In this document: positions 4,604-52,613 of the stretch, in pieces | How the letters are laid out: each line of letters begins with the position of its first letter | Position numbering within the stretch: position 1 is the first letter of the stretch | Sequence record: AP018932 | Reading direction: 5' to 3' (one strand) | Length of the DNA stretch: 64,000 bases | Source of the DNA: Escherichia phage KIT03 | The notes under the pieces: model-generated | The model's input: the letters and a program-made list of their open reading frames with translations, nothing else | The model's database searches: none | Told to the model about the DNA's origin: nothing | Position numbers and translations under genes: made by a program

Positions 4604-4974
4604 TTAAATTTAATGGCTTGAAGAAGACTAATAATTCTCAAACGGCTTCTTTCATCTTTAACTGTAAAAGAAAGAGGGTCGCCAGATTTCATAGTAATAG
4701 TGCATTCAAAATCAAAATCTTCTGTGACTTCTTCGAAGAAGTCAAATTCTTCATCATAAATTAGAACACTACTTTGCAGACTGTGAAGAGTTTTTCCAGC
4801 ATTTCTGCTAACTGCTGTACTAATCATTGTAACATTATGACCTTTCATATCTTCAACGATAAATTCACTAGTCAATATTACAGCATTAATAGAACTATTC
4901 CTATTACTAGCAGAAAGTAGAAATTTCTTTTCTTCGCCTTCGCGAATACGATACTTCTTACCAATTTTAAACAT
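4600..4974 (-). CDS. hypothetical protein, 124 aa
   Basis: ORF with ATGA stop/start overlap to downstream gene. Confidence 0.5.
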   Translation of the reverse strand: MFKIGKKYRIREGEEKKFLLSASNRNSSINAVILTSEFIVEDMKGHNVTMISTAVSRNAGKTLHSLQSSVLIYDEEFDFFEEVTEDFDFECTITMKSGDPLSFTVKDERSRLRIISLLQAIKFK

Positions 4975-4976
4975 AA

Positions 4977-5153
4977 TTACCCTTTAAGTAAGTCGTAAAA
5001 TCCACCATTCACATGCTTAGGAGCAGAAGGCCGACGAGTAGACAAACGATGACATTTAGGACAAACATCATTTTCTCGTTCAGAAATCTTTTTAATTTTT
5101 TCATATTCATGCCCGCAATCTTCGGATTGGCATTTATAATCATACATTGGCAT
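4977..5153 (-). CDS. small zinc-ribbon protein (two CxxC pairs), 58 aa
   Basis: translated by hand: MPMYDYKCQSEDCGHEYEKIKK...VCPKCHRL; not in ORF track (<60 aa); tightly packed between flanking genes. Confidence 0.5.
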   Translation of the reverse strand: MPMYDYKCQSEDCGHEYEKIKKISERENDVCPKCHRLSTRRPSAPKHVNGGFYDLLKG

Positions 5154-5155
5154 AA

Positions 5156-5581
5156 TTATTCCTTAAAATGTGCTTTCAGCATCTGATACAAAGACCATGC
5201 CTGTTCATTATTTTCAATAGTAACTTTCATGACCGGGAATTCTGTGAAATCTTCTATTTGTTCTTGCTCTTTCTCTTCCTGCTCTTGCTCTTCGGCTGCC
5301 TGGTATGGATTTTCCACTTCATCAAAGAACGCAGCTTCGCTCGTTGAAAGCCAGATAAAATCTTCATCCAAAATATCTTTACCAGAAGATAACGCCAATT
5401 TTCCACTAGATGTCACAATTTTAGTAGGACGACCAAGATAGTCAATATCTGTAACTCTAAAAGGTTCCATACCAAGACGACGTGCATAAATTCCATTTTC
5501 AGTATGGTCCTTGATAAAATTTTCTTGAGCTTGTTTATTTTTAAATTGATACCATTTATTAACTTCAAATTTAGTAGCCAT
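5156..5581 (-). CDS. hypothetical protein, 141 aa; possible goF homolog by length and position
   Basis: 141 aa equals recalled T4 goF length; acidic [11 protein letters not shown] stretch. Confidence 0.5.
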
Positions 5582-45598: not shown

Positions 45599-45841
45599 TT
45601 ATTCCTTAATTCCTAGTACTTGTTTAAAAGTCTCGTCGTAATCAAGACTTTGACCTGTTTGTTCTTTATGTTTGTATATAATATCACTTACTTCTGATAG
45701 CATATTTTTATATGAACGAGTTATAGCAGATTTAAGCACGCTATATCTATCAGGAAATTTACCGTGTTCATTATAATACGCTATTGCTAATTCACGGACT
45801 GCCTTTTCAGCAGTCTCCATATATTCTTTACGCTTTGTCAT
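45599..45841 (-). CDS. hypothetical protein, 80 aa
   Basis: ORF. Confidence 0.45.
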
Positions 45842-46148
45842 TTTCTTCTCGGTTAAATCGGTGTTTACAATGACGGCATTTATAACGAAGATTACTAGTC
45901 TGCCAATGGACTAATTGAACCTGTTCAGTACCACATTTTGGGCAGTTCGGAACATTCTTAGAAGCCCTTTCGCGACGTTCAACCATAACCATAATAGCAT
46001 CCCAGGCTGGAGGTTTAAAATCTAAATCATCACAACCATGAATCTTTCCGCGCATTTCCAGATCGTCTTCTTCACCAGCCATAATAATAATTTTAATTAG
46101 ACTGGAATTACTTGAAGCTGCAATATCTTCTAATAGACGCTTTTTCAT
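45828..46148 (-). CDS. hypothetical protein with C-terminal zinc ribbon, 106 aa
   Basis: CPKCG...CRHCKH. Confidence 0.5.
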
Positions 46149-47074
46149 TTCAATACCTCAATAGCATTACGTAAACCATTTGCTTTTGCATTAAGAGCTT
46201 TTAACAATTTAGTGTGTTCGGCAATCTGAGCTTCAACTTCAACTAGTCGAGATTTGAGGTATTCACGTTCTTCGCTCAAGTTATCAATCTTTTCTACTTT
46301 AGGCTCTTTTACAACTGTCTTATATGTATTAGGGTTCTTCAGTTTAATTAAAATGCGTGAACTGTATAACATTGAACCATTATCTTCGGTTTCGTCATAC
46401 ATTTCTACTACGTCCATGATTTTTAACATCATGCGGAGTTTATAAGACAACGAACGAATAGTTTTGTTGTGCTTATTAATTTCTTTAGCTGTCATGGTGC
46501 CGAGATTACGTGAGTAATAATAAGGAACCTGGATATTAATTAATACTGATGAACCACCTGGCTTGTGTGTTACTTCATCAGCAATAACCCAATCCTTAAC
46601 ATGAACTGTATTTGTACGGTCATCGCCCGCGGTAAATAGTTTACGAGCATGCTTAAAAAGCATATTCACTTGGTCATTGAATTGACAAGCGAACTTATCA
46701 GCAAATTTAGTTTCAGGAATGGTAGATAACCAATCAGCCAAATGGGTCTTTTTAACATCATTAACAATAGTAAATTCAACCAAATCAGTTATAGATGTCT
46801 CAGATTTAATAAAGCTCGGCTTCATAAAGTTTTTAATGTTATCGCGAGCTACAGTAGAAGATAACATACGAGAACGTTTAAACCATTGAAGCAAATTGCC
46901 CAACGAATGAGAATAAGCGTTTTGAGTATCTTTACAGATATGATTTTCCTGGCCAACATATTGAAGGAAATCACGAAGAATATTATTGATTACTGCTCTG
47001 TGTCCGATCTGATAATTACGGTGTTTAGTAATAAGACTGTCAAAATAATCAATATAATGTTTACGAGTTTTCAT
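46145..47074 (-). CDS. coiled-coil protein, 309 aa, member of a four-gene paralog array
   Basis: starts MKTRKHY; C-terminal heptad-rich region. Confidence 0.6.
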   Translation of the reverse strand: MKTRKHYIDYFDSLITKHRNYQIGHRAVINNILRDFLQYVGQENHICKDTQNAYSHSLGNLLQWFKRSRMLSSTVARDNIKNFMKPSFIKSETSITDLVEFTIVNDVKKTHLADWLSTIPETKFADKFACQFNDQVNMLFKHARKLFTAGDDRTNTVHVKDWVIADEVTHKPGGSSVLINIQVPYYYSRNLGTMTAKEINKHNKTIRSLSYKLRMMLKIMDVVEMYDETEDNGSMLYSSRILIKLKNPNTYKTVVKEPKVEKIDNLSEEREYLKSRLVEVEAQIAEHTKLLKALNAKANGLRNAIEVLK

Positions 47075-47126
47075 GTTCTTCTCACTTGGTTAATGATTTA
47101 TACTCCGAGCCATCCTTGGCTTTAAA

Positions 47127-48128
47127 TTACTTAATTAACTGTAAAGCTTGTTCTAGACGATCAAGACGATTAACAGATTCTTCCCAAATCCTTTTAGCCT
47201 GCTCATATTCTTTCTGCGCTTTATTAGAAATTTCTAGAACTTCTTTATAAGCTTTTTCTAGTGCAATAACTTCTGGACGAATTTCTACCGGTTCAGGTGA
47301 ATCATCAAGATTATCCATTAGTTCCTCAAGGGTAGTTTCTTCTTTAGGAGTATTCACAATTTCATCACATTTTTGTTGATAAATTTCTTTATCAGTCGGT
47401 GAGTACGCGCACTTTAATTCACGAAGGCTAATTACAATTTTATATCCTTCCCAACCGCATATATTCTTAAAAGGATATGTATGAATATTTTCTACTGTTT
47501 CCATACAAAGTAATGCAGTCTCTAACTGACGAGTTATAGTGCTAGCAATTGAGAAAAATTTATTAATATTCTTTTGGCTAGCGTTTGGTGTAAAAAATCC
47601 ATAATTCACAAAAATAGCTACTTTATTTTCATCAAGCTCATATTCTTTTACGATAATCATATCAGAAGCCAAAGGATGAATTTGACGATAATCGCCATAA
47701 CATAATTTAGAAGCTGATTTTAGAATTTGTCCTTTGAAAAGTTTGAAATTACTAATCCAACGACGAGTAAAAATATTCTCAGGGTCTTCTTTATTATTAA
47801 GATGATAAGAATTAACATCACCGAACCAATTATATCCTACTACATCTTTAGTTCGTTTAATTTCTTTCCCAAAATTACCAAGAATATCCCGATTAACCAA
47901 ATATGAAAGAAGACGAGACTCTTTAAAGGTTTTCTTGATAACATCTTTATCTACACGGCTAGAAATTTTACGAATTTCATGAATAAATTTAGTAGAAGAA
48001 ACAATACTTGCATCAACACTATTGAGCCATTGATTGATAATAGAAAGAACGATATTTTGACCAAACATCGGTATAGCTTTATCATCAATAACGCTATTGA
48101 ATGATTTGATATATTCGTTACGAGTCAT
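47127..48128 (-). CDS. coiled-coil protein, about 333 aa, paralog array member
   Basis: ATG at 48126-48128 with GAGGAG RBS; ORF-track start lies in promoter. Confidence 0.6.
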   Translation of the reverse strand: MTRNEYIKSFNSVIDDKAIPMFGQNIVLSIINQWLNSVDASIVSSTKFIHEIRKISSRVDKDVIKKTFKESRLLSYLVNRDILGNFGKEIKRTKDVVGYNWFGDVNSYHLNNKEDPENIFTRRWISNFKLFKGQILKSASKLCYGDYRQIHPLASDMIIVKEYELDENKVAIFVNYGFFTPNASQKNINKFFSIASTITRQLETALLCMETVENIHTYPFKNICGWEGYKIVISLRELKCAYSPTDKEIYQQKCDEIVNTPKEETTLEELMDNLDDSPEPVEIRPEVIALEKAYKEVLEISNKAQKEYEQAKRIWEESVNRLDRLEQALQLIK

Positions 48129-48156
48129 AATAATCTCCTCAGTAGAAAGTAAGAAC

Positions 48157-48186
48157 ATTATACCACATCCTTGTGGCAATGTAAAC
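48157..48186 (-). promoter_or_regulatory. T4 early-type promoter
   Basis: GTTTAC-n18-TATAAT with TG extension; near-identical to promoter at 2418. Confidence 0.6.
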
Positions 48187-49205
48187 TAGTTCAGTGCATT
48201 TAGTGCATTGTTCAGTTTAGAACGTTGCTTCGTAAGATTTTTGACTTTTTCTTGAGCTTTTTCCAACATCTTTTCAGCTTCTAGCACTTCATTGGTCGCT
48301 TTAACGAGTTCATCATCTACTGCCTTGATAGACTTCTCAATCGCATCCGCGTGCCATTTTTCAACAGGTTTAAGACTCGGATTTTCAACAGGAAGAAAAT
48401 TCACTTTATTGAATTTCCATGCATCATTATTACCTGAACTATACATCCAAAATTTAGGATCGTTTGATAAGTAATTGGATAAATTTAAGTTATCTTGCAC
48501 TTCCTGCTTTTTCTCTTGCGGGACTTCGTCCTTTCTCAAAAAATCGTATTTAAATGAAACGATCATATCAAGTTCATATGATGTTGTATCTAACTTAAAT
48601 CGTTCAAAACGAGGTAAAATCTTAGATTGAACAGCAGCAACAACATCCATATACTTAAATGCTTCTGTCAACTGCGATTTAAGGCATTCGCAAATTGAAA
48701 GAGAATTTTTTGTATTAGGTTTAAAGCTAATTCGTGCAGTTCTATTATTTTCTTTTAATGGTCTTACTTCCATCTGAAGAGTATAACCATCAAATTTCAG
48801 GTTCTTTAAGTTAATATCAGAACCTTTTAATCGACTCGCAGTTGATAAAATTTGCTTTAATTGTCTACGGAATAGAGCAATAAATCTCCATTCAATACGA
48901 TAATGATTTGGATTGAAAAATCCAGATGATAAATCGACCTTACTTTGACCAACGCCTTGAACAAATAGAGGATTTTTATAATCAATAGTTTTACAGAAAT
49001 CGGTGAGCTGCTCACGAGCAGTCATTTGTGTAATATATCCCGCTTTATCAAAATGACGTAACCATTCACTGCTATTCATATACTTAAAGTGAATGGAACT
49101 ATTAACTCTATCAGGGTCTAAATTATTTTGGCACAAAAATGTCATAACATTACGGGTATAGCTGGCATTACGAACCATATCTTCAATTTGAGAACGAGTT
49201 TTCAT
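48186..49205 (-). CDS. coiled-coil protein, 339 aa, paralog array member
   Basis: starts MKTRSQIED; C-terminal coiled coil. Confidence 0.6.
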   Translation of the reverse strand: MKTRSQIEDMVRNASYTRNVMTFLCQNNLDPDRVNSSIHFKYMNSSEWLRHFDKAGYITQMTAREQLTDFCKTIDYKNPLFVQGVGQSKVDLSSGFFNPNHYRIEWRFIALFRRQLKQILSTASRLKGSDINLKNLKFDGYTLQMEVRPLKENNRTARISFKPNTKNSLSICECLKSQLTEAFKYMDVVAAVQSKILPRFERFKLDTTSYELDMIVSFKYDFLRKDEVPQEKKQEVQDNLNLSNYLSNDPKFWMYSSGNNDAWKFNKVNFLPVENPSLKPVEKWHADAIEKSIKAVDDELVKATNEVLEAEKMLEKAQEKVKNLTKQRSKLNNALNALN

Positions 49206-49213
49206 AGTGTTCC

Positions 49214-50122
49214 TTAAGATTTAAGTAAATCAACAATTTTAATTAACTTTTCACGCTCAGATTTAGCTTTACTACTCAATCCAGATAGTCTGAAAATTTC
49301 ATCGTCATACTGTTGAATAGAAATATTCAGCTCTTCAATTTGCTTATTAAAATAATCAATTTGCTCAGAATGTTTTTCATTACTGCGAACTGGTACAGGG
49401 TTTGTAGGCAATTTAGTTGAACTGGATTCATCCGGGCGATAAATTAAAATACAACTTGAACCAATTGGACATTTTGCACCAGATGAATATTCTAACGTTC
49501 CAGCTTCTTTTAAAACTTCAAAAGCTAAACAGAGATGATGCCCCATATTAACATAATCTGTAGAGCGAGCTCTGATATAATAATCATCGCCGCGAATACT
49601 AAATTTAAAGCATTTAAGGTCTTCTGTATTATTGGTCTTAAAAATCATTTGTTTATCTAGACCTTTAGCTAATCGAGCGCCTAATGCTAATAATCGTCGT
49701 TGATTTTCCCACAAATCCGCAATCATTTGATCGAATGACAATTTCGGCATTAGTCTACCATAAAGGTCATATCCTTTATTATAATTACGAAGGATTTCAC
49801 TCGCGTTAATACGAGACAACGCTCCAATTTTATTAAGGGCTTTCATAATGCGATTAGATAAACCCATTCCAGACCCGTTTGTTCGCTGTAAATGTTTTTC
49901 TAATCCAAATCCAATATCAACTTTAAACTTATCTAAAATTTCTGCATGAACATCTCTGTCAATAACATTCAAATCCAAAGTTGGGTTAAATCTATGAAAA
50001 AATTTATCTGGCTCTCCACGACGAAGTACAGTCCATTCATTCATTTTTTTATTAACTAAAGATTTAATTACTGTATTGACATTATTAATTACTACTGACA
50101 TATTTTCCTCACTCAATTTCAA
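49214..50122 (-). CDS. coiled-coil protein, 302 aa, paralog array member
   Basis: C-terminal coiled coil. Confidence 0.6.
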   Translation of the reverse strand: MKLSEENMSVVINNVNTVIKSLVNKKMNEWTVLRRGEPDKFFHRFNPTLDLNVIDRDVHAEILDKFKVDIGFGLEKHLQRTNGSGMGLSNRIMKALNKIGALSRINASEILRNYNKGYDLYGRLMPKLSFDQMIADLWENQRRLLALGARLAKGLDKQMIFKTNNTEDLKCFKFSIRGDDYYIRARSTDYVNMGHHLCLAFEVLKEAGTLEYSSGAKCPIGSSCILIYRPDESSSTKLPTNPVPVRSNEKHSEQIDYFNKQIEELNISIQQYDDEIFRLSGLSSKAKSEREKLIKIVDLLKS

Positions 50123-50516
50123 TTTTACTAAATACGCAGAATATGATGGAAAAGACTATATAAGCACCGCATACAGATTGAACTAATACCATTCCAAAGA
50201 ACCAAACAATATTATCAAACAATGTCTGTTTTACGTCGAAAGGACGTAAACTTACAGTAATATTATCGCCTTTTTCTATTGATGAATACATCTCTGGGGA
50301 AATATATTCGCTAAATCTATAACCGTCTTTGAGTTCATATACGGCAATAAACGATAAACTAGACCCCTTTCCTTGAGTTCCTATAAGGGTATTAACTACA
50401 GTAACATCATAATCTTTATAATGCATATAATCATTAATTGCGTAATAACCATATGCAACTACTACGCATAAACAACATATCAATAAATTCAATCTTTTAA
50501 TTATCAACTGTTTCAT
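50109..50516 (-). CDS. membrane protein, 135 aa
   Basis: hydrophobic N- and C-terminal segments. Confidence 0.5.
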   Translation of the reverse strand: MKQLIIKRLNLLICCLCVVVAYGYYAINDYMHYKDYDVTVVNTLIGTQGKGSSLSFIAVYELKDGYRFSEYISPEMYSSIEKGDNITVSLRPFDVKQTLFDNIVWFFGMVLVQSVCGAYIVFSIIFCVFSKIEIE

Positions 50517-50552
50517 AATAATCTCAATTAAAAGGGCTTAGAACCATTATAC

Positions 50553-50585
50553 CATCCTTGGTATAAAGCGGTTATGCGAGTACCG
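50553..50585 (-). promoter_or_regulatory. possible extended -10 promoter (TGGTATAAT), weak -35
   Basis: minus-strand TGGTATAAT. Confidence 0.3.
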
Positions 50586-51099
50586 TCTTTAACCGTTCTT
50601 CAAACTTCCGAAGAGTGTTCTGGCGTTCAGCTCTTTGCTTTTTGTAAGTTTCAATACGCTCTGAAATGAGAGTGTATCGTTCATTTACTGATTCTTTCAT
50701 AAAATCAGGAATTTCACGAGAAGCTTTAATCTCGTCAAATTTATCAATAACAGCTTGCTCTTCAGCAATTAAGTTATCATACATCAAAATATCTTTCTTG
50801 ATGAACTCAATATCTTCTTGAGTTACACGAGATAATTTAGATGCTTTATCCTTTTTGTACTGTTCGTTAGTATCACGAGACCAGTGTAATGTACGATTTT
50901 TATTCGTATTCTTATAAATTTCTACAATACCAATCTCATCAATAATAACGATCCAATTCCAACGAGATTTGTAAATTTGTCCTCCGTCAACCGTGATTTC
51001 ACCTCCGATTGAGATGTCATTAAAGAACTTGCTTTGTGCTTCAGATTTAAATTTACCATCATTGTAGTTTACTAAGTTGAAAATATCTTTAGCATTCAT
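50572..51099 (-). CDS. hypothetical protein, about 175 aa
   Basis: ATG at 51097-51099 with GGAGGA RBS. Confidence 0.5.
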   Translation of the reverse strand: MNAKDIFNLVNYNDGKFKSEAQSKFFNDISIGGEITVDGGQIYKSRWNWIVIIDEIGIVEIYKNTNKNRTLHWSRDTNEQYKKDKASKLSRVTQEDIEFIKKDILMYDNLIAEEQAVIDKFDEIKASREIPDFMKESVNERYTLISERIETYKKQRAERQNTLRKFEERLKTVLA

Positions 51100-51119
51100 T
51101 TTCTGTTCCTCCGTAGTTG

Positions 51120-51149
51120 ATAGAGTAATAATACCACAGAGGAACAGTC
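51120..51149 (-). promoter_or_regulatory. T4 early-type promoter
   Basis: GTTTAC-n18-TATTAT with TG extension. Confidence 0.5.
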
Positions 51150-51159
51150 TTGTAAACAA

Positions 51160-51462
51160 CTAAAAGAAACTTCTTTCACAATTTTTTCCACTGAACCATG
51201 CGCTCACTGCTTTCTTAGTCTCAGGAGCAGTATTATCCATAAACCATTCAAAGGCAGCCTTTTTATGATTCTGGAGGGCTTCTCGGGCTTTAATCTGCTC
51301 ACGGTCTATTAACACTAACATATGAGCCTTTCTTGTCACCATGGGCTTTGAATATTCCCAATCATTTGTCCATCGCATCGTTGTTGCGAATTGAAGTACA
51401 GCTTCTTTAATTTTAGTTTCGTAAATTTCACGAGCCTTTGAGTATAACATTACTACCTCCAT
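51160..51462 (-). CDS. hypothetical protein, 100 aa
   Basis: ORF. Confidence 0.5.
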   Translation of the reverse strand: MEVVMLYSKAREIYETKIKEAVLQFATTMRWTNDWEYSKPMVTRKAHMLVLIDREQIKAREALQNHKKAAFEWFMDNTAPETKKAVSAWFSGKNCERSFF

Positions 51463-51551
51463 TTACCAGTTTAATTCTAGTCATCTTTTTGATGGCAGTC
51501 CATATAATCTATTTCTGAACTGCCTTTTTATCTTAGAAGGCCTCTTATGAA

Positions 51552-52520
51552 TTATTTCAGAAGAGTAACCTCAGCGATTTCTTCCCAACCGTTTTTGTCG
51601 GTCATAATAAAGTCAGCAAGATAAAGAGCAGTACGCAGTGAAACATTGCGTAAACGATTAACATTGACTTTCATCCATGATAATGCTTTATAAGTTTCTT
51701 CATCAGAAAGACCGCGCTTTTGCATCATGTCAGTTGAAAGAATAACATCTTCAACCCTGACCATAATTTCTTCATTAGTGTGAACACCCAAATCCAAATA
51801 AACTGAGCGGGACACTAATGCTTGTAAATGTGGAGCAAGTTTAGTACCACGGTCTAATTCGCGGTCAATGTCAACGTTTGTGATAAAAACAATCGTTCCT
51901 TTAAATTCAAACTCACGCTCAATGCCTTTTTCTTCTAAGTAAGAAGATGCAGTGCTCCAGCAGACTTTACGGGTCTCTCCAGTGTCCAGAGCAGCTTTCA
52001 GAAGATTAAGAATGTCCATATCAGAGAAAACATCCACATCATCAATCAAAAGGACAGAATTCTCTTCACGATTATTCCAAAGCTGCTCATAAAGACCAAT
52101 ACCAGAGATTTTACCATTAATGCTTTTATATTCAATGTATCCAATATCATTTGCTTTATTTAAAGCTTTATCTAAAGAATACGTTTTACCAATACCCGCC
52201 GCACCAGAGATAATTAATGAACGAATGTTTCCGTTAATAATACCATTCGTCATCATTCCCATAACATTAAATCTTTTATTAATGCGGGTTTTCATATCTT
52301 CATATGATTCTTTAACTTCTTCAACTTTTACACCATCATATGAAATGTCTGATTTGTAAACCCAAACACCGCGACGTTTACCGTCAATTTCAACAAAAAC
52401 TTTACCATCTCCTTGTGCATCTACTGGGGCATTATCAGGGAACCACTCACCTAAGAGTTCAAAAGTTCCAGAGATTTCTTTGCCAAAGTAGATACCCTTA
52501 TTGATAGTTACAGTTTTCAT
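51552..52520 (-). CDS. P-loop ATPase (AAA-like), about 322 aa
   Basis: Walker A GAAGIGKT, Walker B LLIDDVD; ATG at 52518-52520 after GGAGAATAAA leader. Confidence 0.6.
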   Translation of the reverse strand: MKTVTINKGIYFGKEISGTFELLGEWFPDNAPVDAQGDGKVFVEIDGKRRGVWVYKSDISYDGVKVEEVKESYEDMKTRINKRFNVMGMMTNGIINGNIRSLIISGAAGIGKTYSLDKALNKANDIGYIEYKSINGKISGIGLYEQLWNNREENSVLLIDDVDVFSDMDILNLLKAALDTGETRKVCWSTASSYLEEKGIEREFEFKGTIVFITNVDIDRELDRGTKLAPHLQALVSRSVYLDLGVHTNEEIMVRVEDVILSTDMMQKRGLSDEETYKALSWMKVNVNRLRNVSLRTALYLADFIMTDKNGWEEIAEVTLLK

Positions 52521-52554
52521 TTTATTCTCCAAATCTGTATCAGTTGATAGTTGT

Positions 52555-52584
52555 ATAGTACCATAAAGCTTTATGCTTGTAAAC
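52555..52584 (-). promoter_or_regulatory. T4 early-type promoter in a promoter-stem-loop cassette
   Basis: GTTTAC-n18-TACTAT with TG extension. Confidence 0.6.
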
Positions 52585-52613
52585 AACTTTGTGAAAAATT
52601 TTTGAAATAAAAA

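Follow-up and report, generated by a model that had tools for sequence, protein, structure and literature searches.

Four consecutive genes on the minus strand of Escherichia phage KIT03 (sequence record AP018932), located at positions 46145-50122 of the 64,000-nucleotide stretch of DNA analysed here (hereafter the window), encode proteins that can be regarded with high confidence as homologous but strongly diverged paralogues. These genes are the orthologues of phage T4 nrdC.3, nrdC.4, nrdC.5, and nrdC.6, and each of their products appears to be laid out as a globular N-terminal alpha/beta domain of approximately 220-250 residues, a variable linker, and a C-terminal predicted coiled coil of 48-56 residues. 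We consider it reasonably probable that the array represents a paralogous anti-defence family inside the known T4 anti-defence island. Within the array, the window nrdC.5 is very probably a factor that counteracts the sirtuin defence Dsr1, and the chances that nrdC.3, nrdC.4, and nrdC.6 are anti-defence proteins as well are about even.

Homology of the four array proteins

A preliminary description of this DNA, made from the sequence alone, had reported four consecutive genes of similar size, three of whose products begin with MKTR or MTR and all of which end in heptad-rich segments, and had proposed that these genes are paralogues with weak central motifs only, to be compared with the nrdC.x open reading frames (ORFs) of T4. 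The gene number, the N-terminal and C-terminal features, and the syntenic T4 counterparts have all stood up (product lengths are 309, 333, 339, and 295 amino acids [aa] after correction of two start codons). The weakness of the motifs holds for pairwise comparisons, where BLASTP found nrdC.3 and nrdC.4 (25% over 226 aa, expectation value [E] 5e-8) as the sole significant pair among the four proteins; it does not hold at the profile level, where hhalign recovers the remaining links. Profile-profile comparison, which the preliminary description had itself named as the analysis that could refute four-way paralogy, gave similarity well above controls.

With family profiles, hhalign joined nrdC.3 and nrdC.4 at 98-99% probability (E ~1e-14); with enriched profiles, nrdC.5 matched nrdC.3 at 82% (local) and 94.5% (global) probability, and nrdC.4 at 71-86% (local) and 93-94% (global), the latter over ~230 colinear columns. 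The comparisons of nrdC.6 with each single family were weak (probability 0.8-16%, P 0.002-0.07), and first-round shallow profiles did not place this protein; its link to the others was seen only after loci of other genera had been added and profiles had been merged. Using 80% non-redundant representatives, the merged profile of nrdC.3, nrdC.4, and nrdC.5 matched nrdC.6 at 88% probability in local mode (E 2.9e-6) and at 95% in global mode (P 6.7e-9, 265 columns). Block shuffles did not score above 29.6 in local mode or 24.9 in global mode, compared to observed scores of 50.3 and 47.8, and with a reversed template, the P values were 0.43 and 0.017, respectively; of 150 column shuffles, not one equalled even the earlier, weaker scores. 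Against the column-shuffled and block-shuffled nulls, the match has a z-score of ~6-10, and when the coiled coils were removed, the N-terminal domains still scored 33.1, whereas shuffles did not exceed 22.6. Five neighbouring genes, including nrdC.8, the C-terminal region of which also looks helical, gave P values of 0.03 or worse against the four profiles; nrdC.8 (P 0.17-0.47) and the other neighbours were thus rejected as further members of the family, no similarity being found.

Five colinear motifs line up across the families in a joint MAFFT alignment, including (i) an N-terminal (K)TR.e.I..F, which is absent from nrdC.6, (ii) [FL].K.[GR].[LI][ST]...A...[LI].[ND][FY].K, (iii) F....q..lL..A.[RK]L, (iv) L..al..M..V, and (v) P..EK.[HY], which marks the entry into the terminal helix. 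In addition, nrdC.6 adjoins nrdC.5 in every locus examined, and its heptad register, counted from the C-terminus, is identical to that of the other three proteins. Together with the merged-profile match, which survives removal of the coiled coils, and with the agreement between sequence alignment and structural models described below, these observations make it improbable that only nrdC.3, nrdC.4, and nrdC.5 are true paralogues and that nrdC.6 is an unrelated look-alike with an independent helical N-terminus and C-terminal coiled coil, an alternative that is favored by the weak single-family comparisons and by the classification of nrdC.6 as a separate family in both PHROGs and Pfam. This alternative could also draw on a Foldseek search of the nrdC.6 model against BFVD, which returned no member of the nrdC.3, nrdC.4, or nrdC.5 families. 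The nrdC.5 model, however, did not find its own family in BFVD either (its search gave only weak matches with low template modelling [TM] scores and was disregarded); BFVD thus seems to be without the nrdC.5 family, and missing BFVD matches are therefore uninformative. Overall, we grade the homology as certain for nrdC.3 and nrdC.4, strong for nrdC.5, and good, though short of final, for nrdC.6, which owes its place in the family to the merged-profile match, the shared motifs, the agreement in topology, and synteny. While nrdC.3 and nrdC.4 have already been joined in PHROGs and Pfam, nrdC.5 and nrdC.6 are kept there as separate families; a link joining Phage_T4_Y04OP, DUF7235, and Phage_T4_Y05B, and a common architecture of head, linker, and coiled coil, were not found described in the literature searched, and represent a modest, incremental addition.

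Domain architecture and searches for known domains

A single heptad register runs without a break through the C-terminal 48-56 residues of every array protein (Table 1). In these segments, 80-94% of the a and d positions are hydrophobic, compared to 18-26% of the other positions; across the four segments, only 0-4 of 2000 residue shuffles match the observed a/d hydrophobicity. Approximately 35-40% of the residues in these segments are charged, at most one is proline or glycine, and the four proteins share an ending like [KR]L..[AIV][LIM]..L[KN]. AlphaFold2 models, which were built independently for nrdC.5 and nrdC.6, show a 56-residue terminal helix in nrdC.5 (residues 283-338; predicted local distance difference test [pLDDT] 75-92 over the last 40 residues) and two terminal helices in nrdC.6 (residues 242-271 and 277-294), the nrdC.6 model being of good quality (pLDDT 78.5, predicted TM score 0.66). 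Both models have the same order of elements, i.e., N-terminal helices, a long helix (residues 99-127 in nrdC.5 and 123-144 in nrdC.6), a β-β-α-β-β unit (residues 143-218 and 165-221, respectively), a low-confidence linker, and the terminal helix or helices. The hhalign sequence alignment pairs exactly the same elements, for example placing nrdC.5 helix 99-127 on nrdC.6 helix 123-144. The linker between the N-terminal domain and the coiled coil is probably disordered and shows the highest variability of all segments except in nrdC.4; the coiled coil, in turn, varies least in every protein but nrdC.5.

Searches with the array proteins matched no characterised domain in Pfam or NCBIfam, nothing in NCBIfam scoring above chance for any of the four, and gave only chance-level hits to PADLOC defence models (BrxC, E 0.0044, on the coiled coil; BrxF, E 0.033). 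Profile searches of the PDB with nrdC.3, nrdC.5, and nrdC.6 (E<=1 or E<=10) found nothing but one chance-level match of nrdC.5 to a ribosomal protein. With regard to nrdC.3, residues 34-82 (window 46829-46975) show a sub-threshold likeness to the SAM-like core-binding domain of tyrosine recombinases, with matches to Phage_int_SAM_1 (PF02899; 13.7 bits, E 0.077, gathering threshold 22.3 bits), to NCBIfam XerD models (E 0.0013; 18 bits against a 279-bit cut-off), and, by hhalign, to the N-terminus of Escherichia coli XerD (P 0.0024, probability 12%). The matched stretch covers a motif common to all four families, and one could thus read the family as DNA-binding or recombination-associated, with the N-terminal helices forming a SAM-like core-binding domain and the coiled coil dimerising the protein on DNA. 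This reading is highly improbable, as the scores fall far under the curated cut-offs and the hhalign probability is low, as a PDB search with the nrdC.3 profile was empty even at a cut-off of E<=10, and as the array proteins have no catalytic recombinase domain; only two of seven nrdC.3 alleles match PF02899, and the resemblance was rejected as sub-threshold.

Evidence for an anti-defence role

The member of the family with a reported phenotype is nrdC.5. Srikant, Guegler & Laub (eLife 2022) described a T4 clone with deletions that was unable to infect ECOR17 owing to the sirtuin defence Dsr1, and reported that T4 nrdC.5, which they call an early gene, restores plating on MG1655 carrying dsr1 when expressed alone (PMC9391042); the evidence is genetic and concerns the T4 allele. 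The window nrdC.5 is the orthologue of this allele, with 94% amino-acid identity to T4 NrdC.5 (Y05A, DUF7235) over the full length, the same length class, a syntenic position, and the same Pfam family. By contrast, nrdC.3, nrdC.4, and nrdC.6 are distant paralogues that have the same domain layout and share 25% identity or less with NrdC.5, and therefore need not share its target; their common ancestry with nrdC.5 and their layout of head, linker, and coiled coil nevertheless make them candidates for anti-defence functions. In the literature searched, nrdC.5 was the only phage-encoded protein inhibitor of Dsr1 found. Another, metabolic way of countering DSR1 is known from the NARP3 NAD+-salvage system, and later papers still call Dsr1 poorly characterised.

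Three further genes within a few kilobases of the array have been reported as inhibitors of specific defence systems. T4 nrdC.1 inhibits Septu; gp49.2, which lies nearby in T4 and T6, inhibits OLD; and Bas37_0203, which its place and length in the supplementary gene table identify as an nrdC.8 orthologue, inhibits Druantia type III. These genes share with the array their neighbourhood, strand, and non-essential accessory character, and encode proteins without known domains; they differ in that gp49.2, NrdC.1, and NrdC.8 are small, single-copy proteins (80-175 aa) that are unrelated in sequence to the four paralogues. The whole stretch from gene 49 to nrdC behaves as an anti-defence island, and the locus has already been recognized as rich in anti-defence genes. 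In the window, the neighbours nrdC.1 (45599-45841) and nrdC.8 (50572-51099) are orthologues of these recently reported anti-defence genes.

As a mechanism, we propose that the coiled coil would oligomerise each protein and that each of the divergent N-terminal heads would bind a different host immune protein and inactivate it in a stoichiometric manner, by direct contact. NrdC.5 would in this manner block the nicotinamide adenine dinucleotide (NAD)-depleting defence Dsr1, and nrdC.3, nrdC.4, and nrdC.6 may act on other defence systems or on other Dsr1-like variants; all four genes are presumably expressed early. A mechanistic analogue is provided by DSAD1 of an SPbeta-group phage, which neutralises DSR2, a SIR2-domain NAD-depleting defence, by direct binding, and for which solved DSR2-DSAD1 complexes have been reported (PMC10973363, PMC10981675, PMC11087589). 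DSAD1 differs in its target, which is DSR2 and not Dsr1, and in acting in another host phylum, and NrdC.5 is known from genetics, with binding only proposed. No homology to DSAD1 was found when the nrdC.3, nrdC.5, and nrdC.6 profiles were compared with all PDB chain sequences.

Alternatively, the four proteins could be general host-takeover or "monkey-wrench" early proteins that act on housekeeping functions (e.g., transcription, proteolysis, or the nucleoid), the effect of nrdC.5 on Dsr1 being indirect, for example through removal of the trigger signal. A promoter-like site inside the array, the designation of T4 nrdC.5 as an early gene (PMC9391042), the presence in the same region of pin, which inhibits the Lon protease of the host, and the fact that no published mechanism for nrdC.5 was found would all fit such a role, as would the non-essential character of the array genes in the laboratory, which a transposon study gives for nrdC.3 to nrdC.6 in both T4 and Bas37. 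We nevertheless judge this explanation to be rather unlikely; the three anti-defence genes close by are genuine inhibitors, each directed at a particular defence system, and presence/absence and allele replacement among near-identical phages, as described below for the array, are typical of host-range and anti-defence genes and not of general takeover genes.

While we thus prefer to read the array as an anti-defence family, several findings weigh against this reading or parts of it. With regard to function, nrdC.5 is the only member with a phenotype, and the literature searched yielded no published mechanism for it, be it direct binding or another; the main text and two comparison tables of the HIDEN-SEQ preprint give no conditional phenotype for nrdC.3, nrdC.4, or nrdC.6, and our searches found no similarity in sequence or structure between the array proteins and a known anti-defence protein or solved structure. 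With regard to architecture, the coiled coil is a prediction and oligomerisation of the proteins is at present putative, and the overall nrdC.5 model is poor, with low confidence (pLDDT 51, from an alignment of 15 sequences). The weak single-family matches of nrdC.6 belong here as well, as do two findings on selection: gene-wide positive selection on the array was not found, the observed ratios of nonsynonymous to synonymous substitution rates (dN/dS) indicating purifying selection, and nrdC.6 is, within its main allele, as conserved as ordinary genes.

Selection, allele turnover, and history of the array

Gene-wide dN/dS values were obtained by pairwise Nei-Gojobori comparison of the window with seven Tequatrovirus loci. 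The values ranged from 0.06 to 0.30 for nrdC.3, 0.17 to 0.31 for nrdC.4, 0.18 to 0.25 for nrdC.5, and 0.05 to 0.14 for nrdC.6; among the flanking genes, they were 0.02-0.07 for nrdC, 0.03-0.09 for nrdC.1, about 0-0.04 for nrdC.8, and 0-0.12 for nrdC.10. Constraint on nrdC.4 and nrdC.5 is thus 3-10 times more relaxed than on flanking genes, and is also clearly relaxed for divergent nrdC.3 alleles.

Diversification shows mostly as turnover of gene content and alleles among otherwise near-identical phages. Alleles of nrdC.3 among Tequatroviruses fall into classes with >=90%, ~77%, and ~60% identity, T4 being in the 60% class, and one Tequatrovirus subgroup is without nrdC.4 and carries nrdC.5 and nrdC.6 alleles that are only 25% and 33% identical, respectively. 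ACG-C40 has lost nrdC.3 to nrdC.5 and retains an out-of-frame nrdC.5/nrdC.3 remnant (positions 4805-5216 of locus L014); Pinarejo (L016) has lost nrdC.6; and Salmonella phage Manna, which is without nrdC.5, carries an in-frame fusion of nrdC.6 (residues about 1-262) to nrdC.4 (residues 251-333) at a junction where both parent genes read DEI (positions 4215-5252 of L015). Another fused protein, P0111, was rejected as a recombinant between paralogues, since it represents an nrdC.5::nrdC.3 fusion with the intervening sequence missing. Two further rearranged proteins were observed. NrdC.6 of Shigella phage Sf25 (P0113, 378 aa) contains an internal tandem duplication of 83 residues, equivalent to window 49328-49576, which spans the final alpha-beta-beta unit and the linker and extends into the first part of the coiled coil. 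A 173-aa ORF (P0222) joins an unrelated N-terminus of 120 residues to 53 C-terminal residues that are 100% identical to the coiled coil of the window NrdC.5; it sits on an 803-bp metagenome contig (L012), which is too short to show whether the domains were truly swapped or the assembly is chimeric.

Similarity drops along the array, with nrdC.3 and nrdC.4 closer to each other than nrdC.4 is to nrdC.5, and with nrdC.6 the most distant; this decay with array distance fits serial tandem duplication. Homologues of nrdC.6, nrdC.5, and nrdC.4 are found in the same order, without nrdC.3, in nine viral contigs that are more divergent than the Tequatrovirus alleles as well as in two metagenomic T4-like contigs, and at least some of the phages with such divergent nrdC.6 alleles are named Dhakavirus in their source records. 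As the triple is already ordered alike in divergent relatives, the duplications must be ancient and do not reflect an ongoing burst. By contrast, nrdC.3 was found only in Tequatrovirus-type records (652 records) and appears to be an extra copy confined to this genus. The proposals of the preliminary description on the history of the array thus hold in part. Serial duplication agrees with the gradient of similarity, at an older date; the idea of a diversifying family is supported by divergent alleles, deletions, and fusions, but not by the gene-wide dN/dS values, which span 0.05-0.31; and an arms race with host targets has support for one member, nrdC.5, through the T4 phenotype on Dsr1 cells (PMC9391042), but is not supported as worded for nrdC.3, nrdC.4, and nrdC.6.

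Outside these loci, an exhaustive comparison of the nrdC.5 hidden Markov model with 1.84 billion representative proteins gave only 13 hits, most of which are T4-like relatives or fragments, one a repetitive sequence, and two matches to the nrdC.5 C-terminal helix only, and it linked the protein to no other family; on these sequence comparisons, the family appears to be restricted to phages. By fold, the nrdC.6 model matched uncharacterised proteins of 304-335 aa in distant Straboviridae, from Acinetobacter phages Acj9, Acj61, and fHyAci03, Pectobacterium phage PM2, and Enterobacter phage IME523 (Foldseek probability 1.0, TM-score 0.42-0.51). The BFVD match in Acj9 is presumed to be Acj9p122, since no other protein of 325 aa is annotated around that position. 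Acj9p122 is located at a distance of two genes from gene 49 and nrdH, and its C-terminus looks like a coiled coil; it differs from the array proteins in being a single gene, not part of an array, and has no detectable sequence similarity to them, suggesting that the sequence signal in this family decays quickly.

Gene models, annotation, and neighbouring genes

The window is from a Tequatrovirus; its DNA is ~97% identical to many genomes of this genus (including Ge15, ESh31, and slur03), with 655 records matched. The four ORFs are flanked by nrdC, nrdC.1, and nrdC.2 on the upstream side and by nrdC.7 to nrdC.11 on the downstream side. Two starts in the mechanically derived ORF list were replaced. 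For nrdC.4, we place the start at ATG 48128 (MTRNEY...) instead of TTG 48179, because the latter is inside a TTTACA-17-TATAAT promoter and because a GAGGA ribosome-binding site precedes ATG 48128 by 8 nt; for nrdC.6, ATG 50101, with GAGGA 5 nt upstream, replaces TTG 50122, which overlaps nrdC.7. The promoter-like site is the best in the scanned region, and its putative role is suggested by its match to the consensus.

Table 1. Coordinates in the window of the array genes, the putative promoter, and the heptad segments.
Feature	Coordinates	Strand	Basis
nrdC.3 orthologue, 309 aa (T4 Y04O)	46145..47074	-	ORF; synteny with T4 and slur03; phrog_1435, E 2e-116
nrdC.4 orthologue, 333 aa (T4 Y04P; Pfam PF26897 Phage_T4_Y04OP, through homologues)	47127..48128	-	ORF; start reading; synteny with T4 and slur03; phrog_1435, E 3.5e-168; hhalign
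nrdC.5 orthologue, 339 aa (T4 Y05A; Pfam DUF7235)	48186..49205	-	ORF; synteny with T4 and slur03; PF23882, E 6.9e-122; 94% identity to T4
nrdC.6 orthologue, 295 aa (T4 Y05B; Pfam PF26899, through homologues)	49214..50101	-	ORF; synteny with T4 and slur03; phrog_2257, E 6.9e-153; AlphaFold2 model; merged-profile homology
Putative sigma-70-type, T4 early-like promoter, TTTACA-17-TATAAT with extended TG	48157..48185	-	Between nrdC.5 and nrdC.4; 11/12 consensus positions match
nrdC.3 heptad segment, residues 262-309	46148..46291	-	86% a/d hydrophobic; 2/2000 shuffles
nrdC.4 heptad segment, residues 286-333	47130..47273	-	86% a/d hydrophobic; 4/2000 shuffles
nrdC.5 heptad segment, residues 284-339	48189..48356	-	94% a/d hydrophobic; 0/2000 shuffles
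nrdC.6 heptad segment, residues 242-295	49217..49378	-	80% a/d hydrophobic; 0/2000 shuffles

With regard to database families, a single PHROG (1435) covers both nrdC.3 and nrdC.4, and nrdC.6 belongs to PHROG 2257. The assignment of nrdC.4 to PF26897 is indirect, through homologues at 40-96% identity that carry a precomputed match, and homologues of nrdC.6 at 96-98% identity carry PF26899 (Phage_T4_Y05B); nrdC.5 matches DUF7235 directly and over its full length (407 bits, compared to a gathering threshold of 30 bits). NrdC.6 in the T4 reference NC_000866 is 275 aa long and matches the window protein over residues 1-258 only, most of the coiled coil thus being missing. As a newer T4 record matches the window nrdC.6 over all 295 aa, the shorter reading in the older reference probably stems from a frameshift or a sequencing error.

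Many GenBank records (e.g., ESh31, SHBML-50-1, and Manna) label nrdC.3 to nrdC.6, and in Manna also nrdC.7 to nrdC.11, as "thioredoxin". A Pfam scan found no thioredoxin or glutaredoxin domain in nrdC.2 to nrdC.10, nor did an NCBIfam scan of the four array proteins; the label, which is spread over window 46145-52586, is flagged here as wrong for the array genes and seems to have been propagated from the locus name nrdC.x. Beyond nrdC.8, nrdC.10 (51552-52520) shows weak matches to P-loop NTPases of the AAA/STAND type (AAA_14, E 5.8e-5; nSTAND3, E 4.9e-4) that are below curated cut-offs.

Implications

The array does not represent a new kind of system; its genes are long-catalogued T4 ORFs with Pfam and PHROG families of their own, of which nrdC.3 and nrdC.4 had already been merged in Pfam, and the nrdC.5 phenotype had been published. 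The present analysis merges three currently separate database families, flags a widespread annotation as wrong, and turns three uncharacterised T4 genes (nrdC.3, nrdC.4, and nrdC.6) into testable anti-defence candidates, for which exchanging heads while keeping the stalk is suggested as a way to map specificity. Much more tentatively, and in our view with the odds against it, Phage_T4_Y04OP, DUF7235, Phage_T4_Y05B, and the fold-matched Straboviridae orphans, one of which is syntenic, may form one ancient superfamily of modular immune antagonists, in which a fast-evolving, target-binding head is carried on a conserved coiled-coil stalk and each paralogue disarms a different defence sensor. If this were true, the array would correspond, in a phage, to the diversifying families of host-range genes in large eukaryotic viruses and would provide a ready source of new anti-defence specificities.

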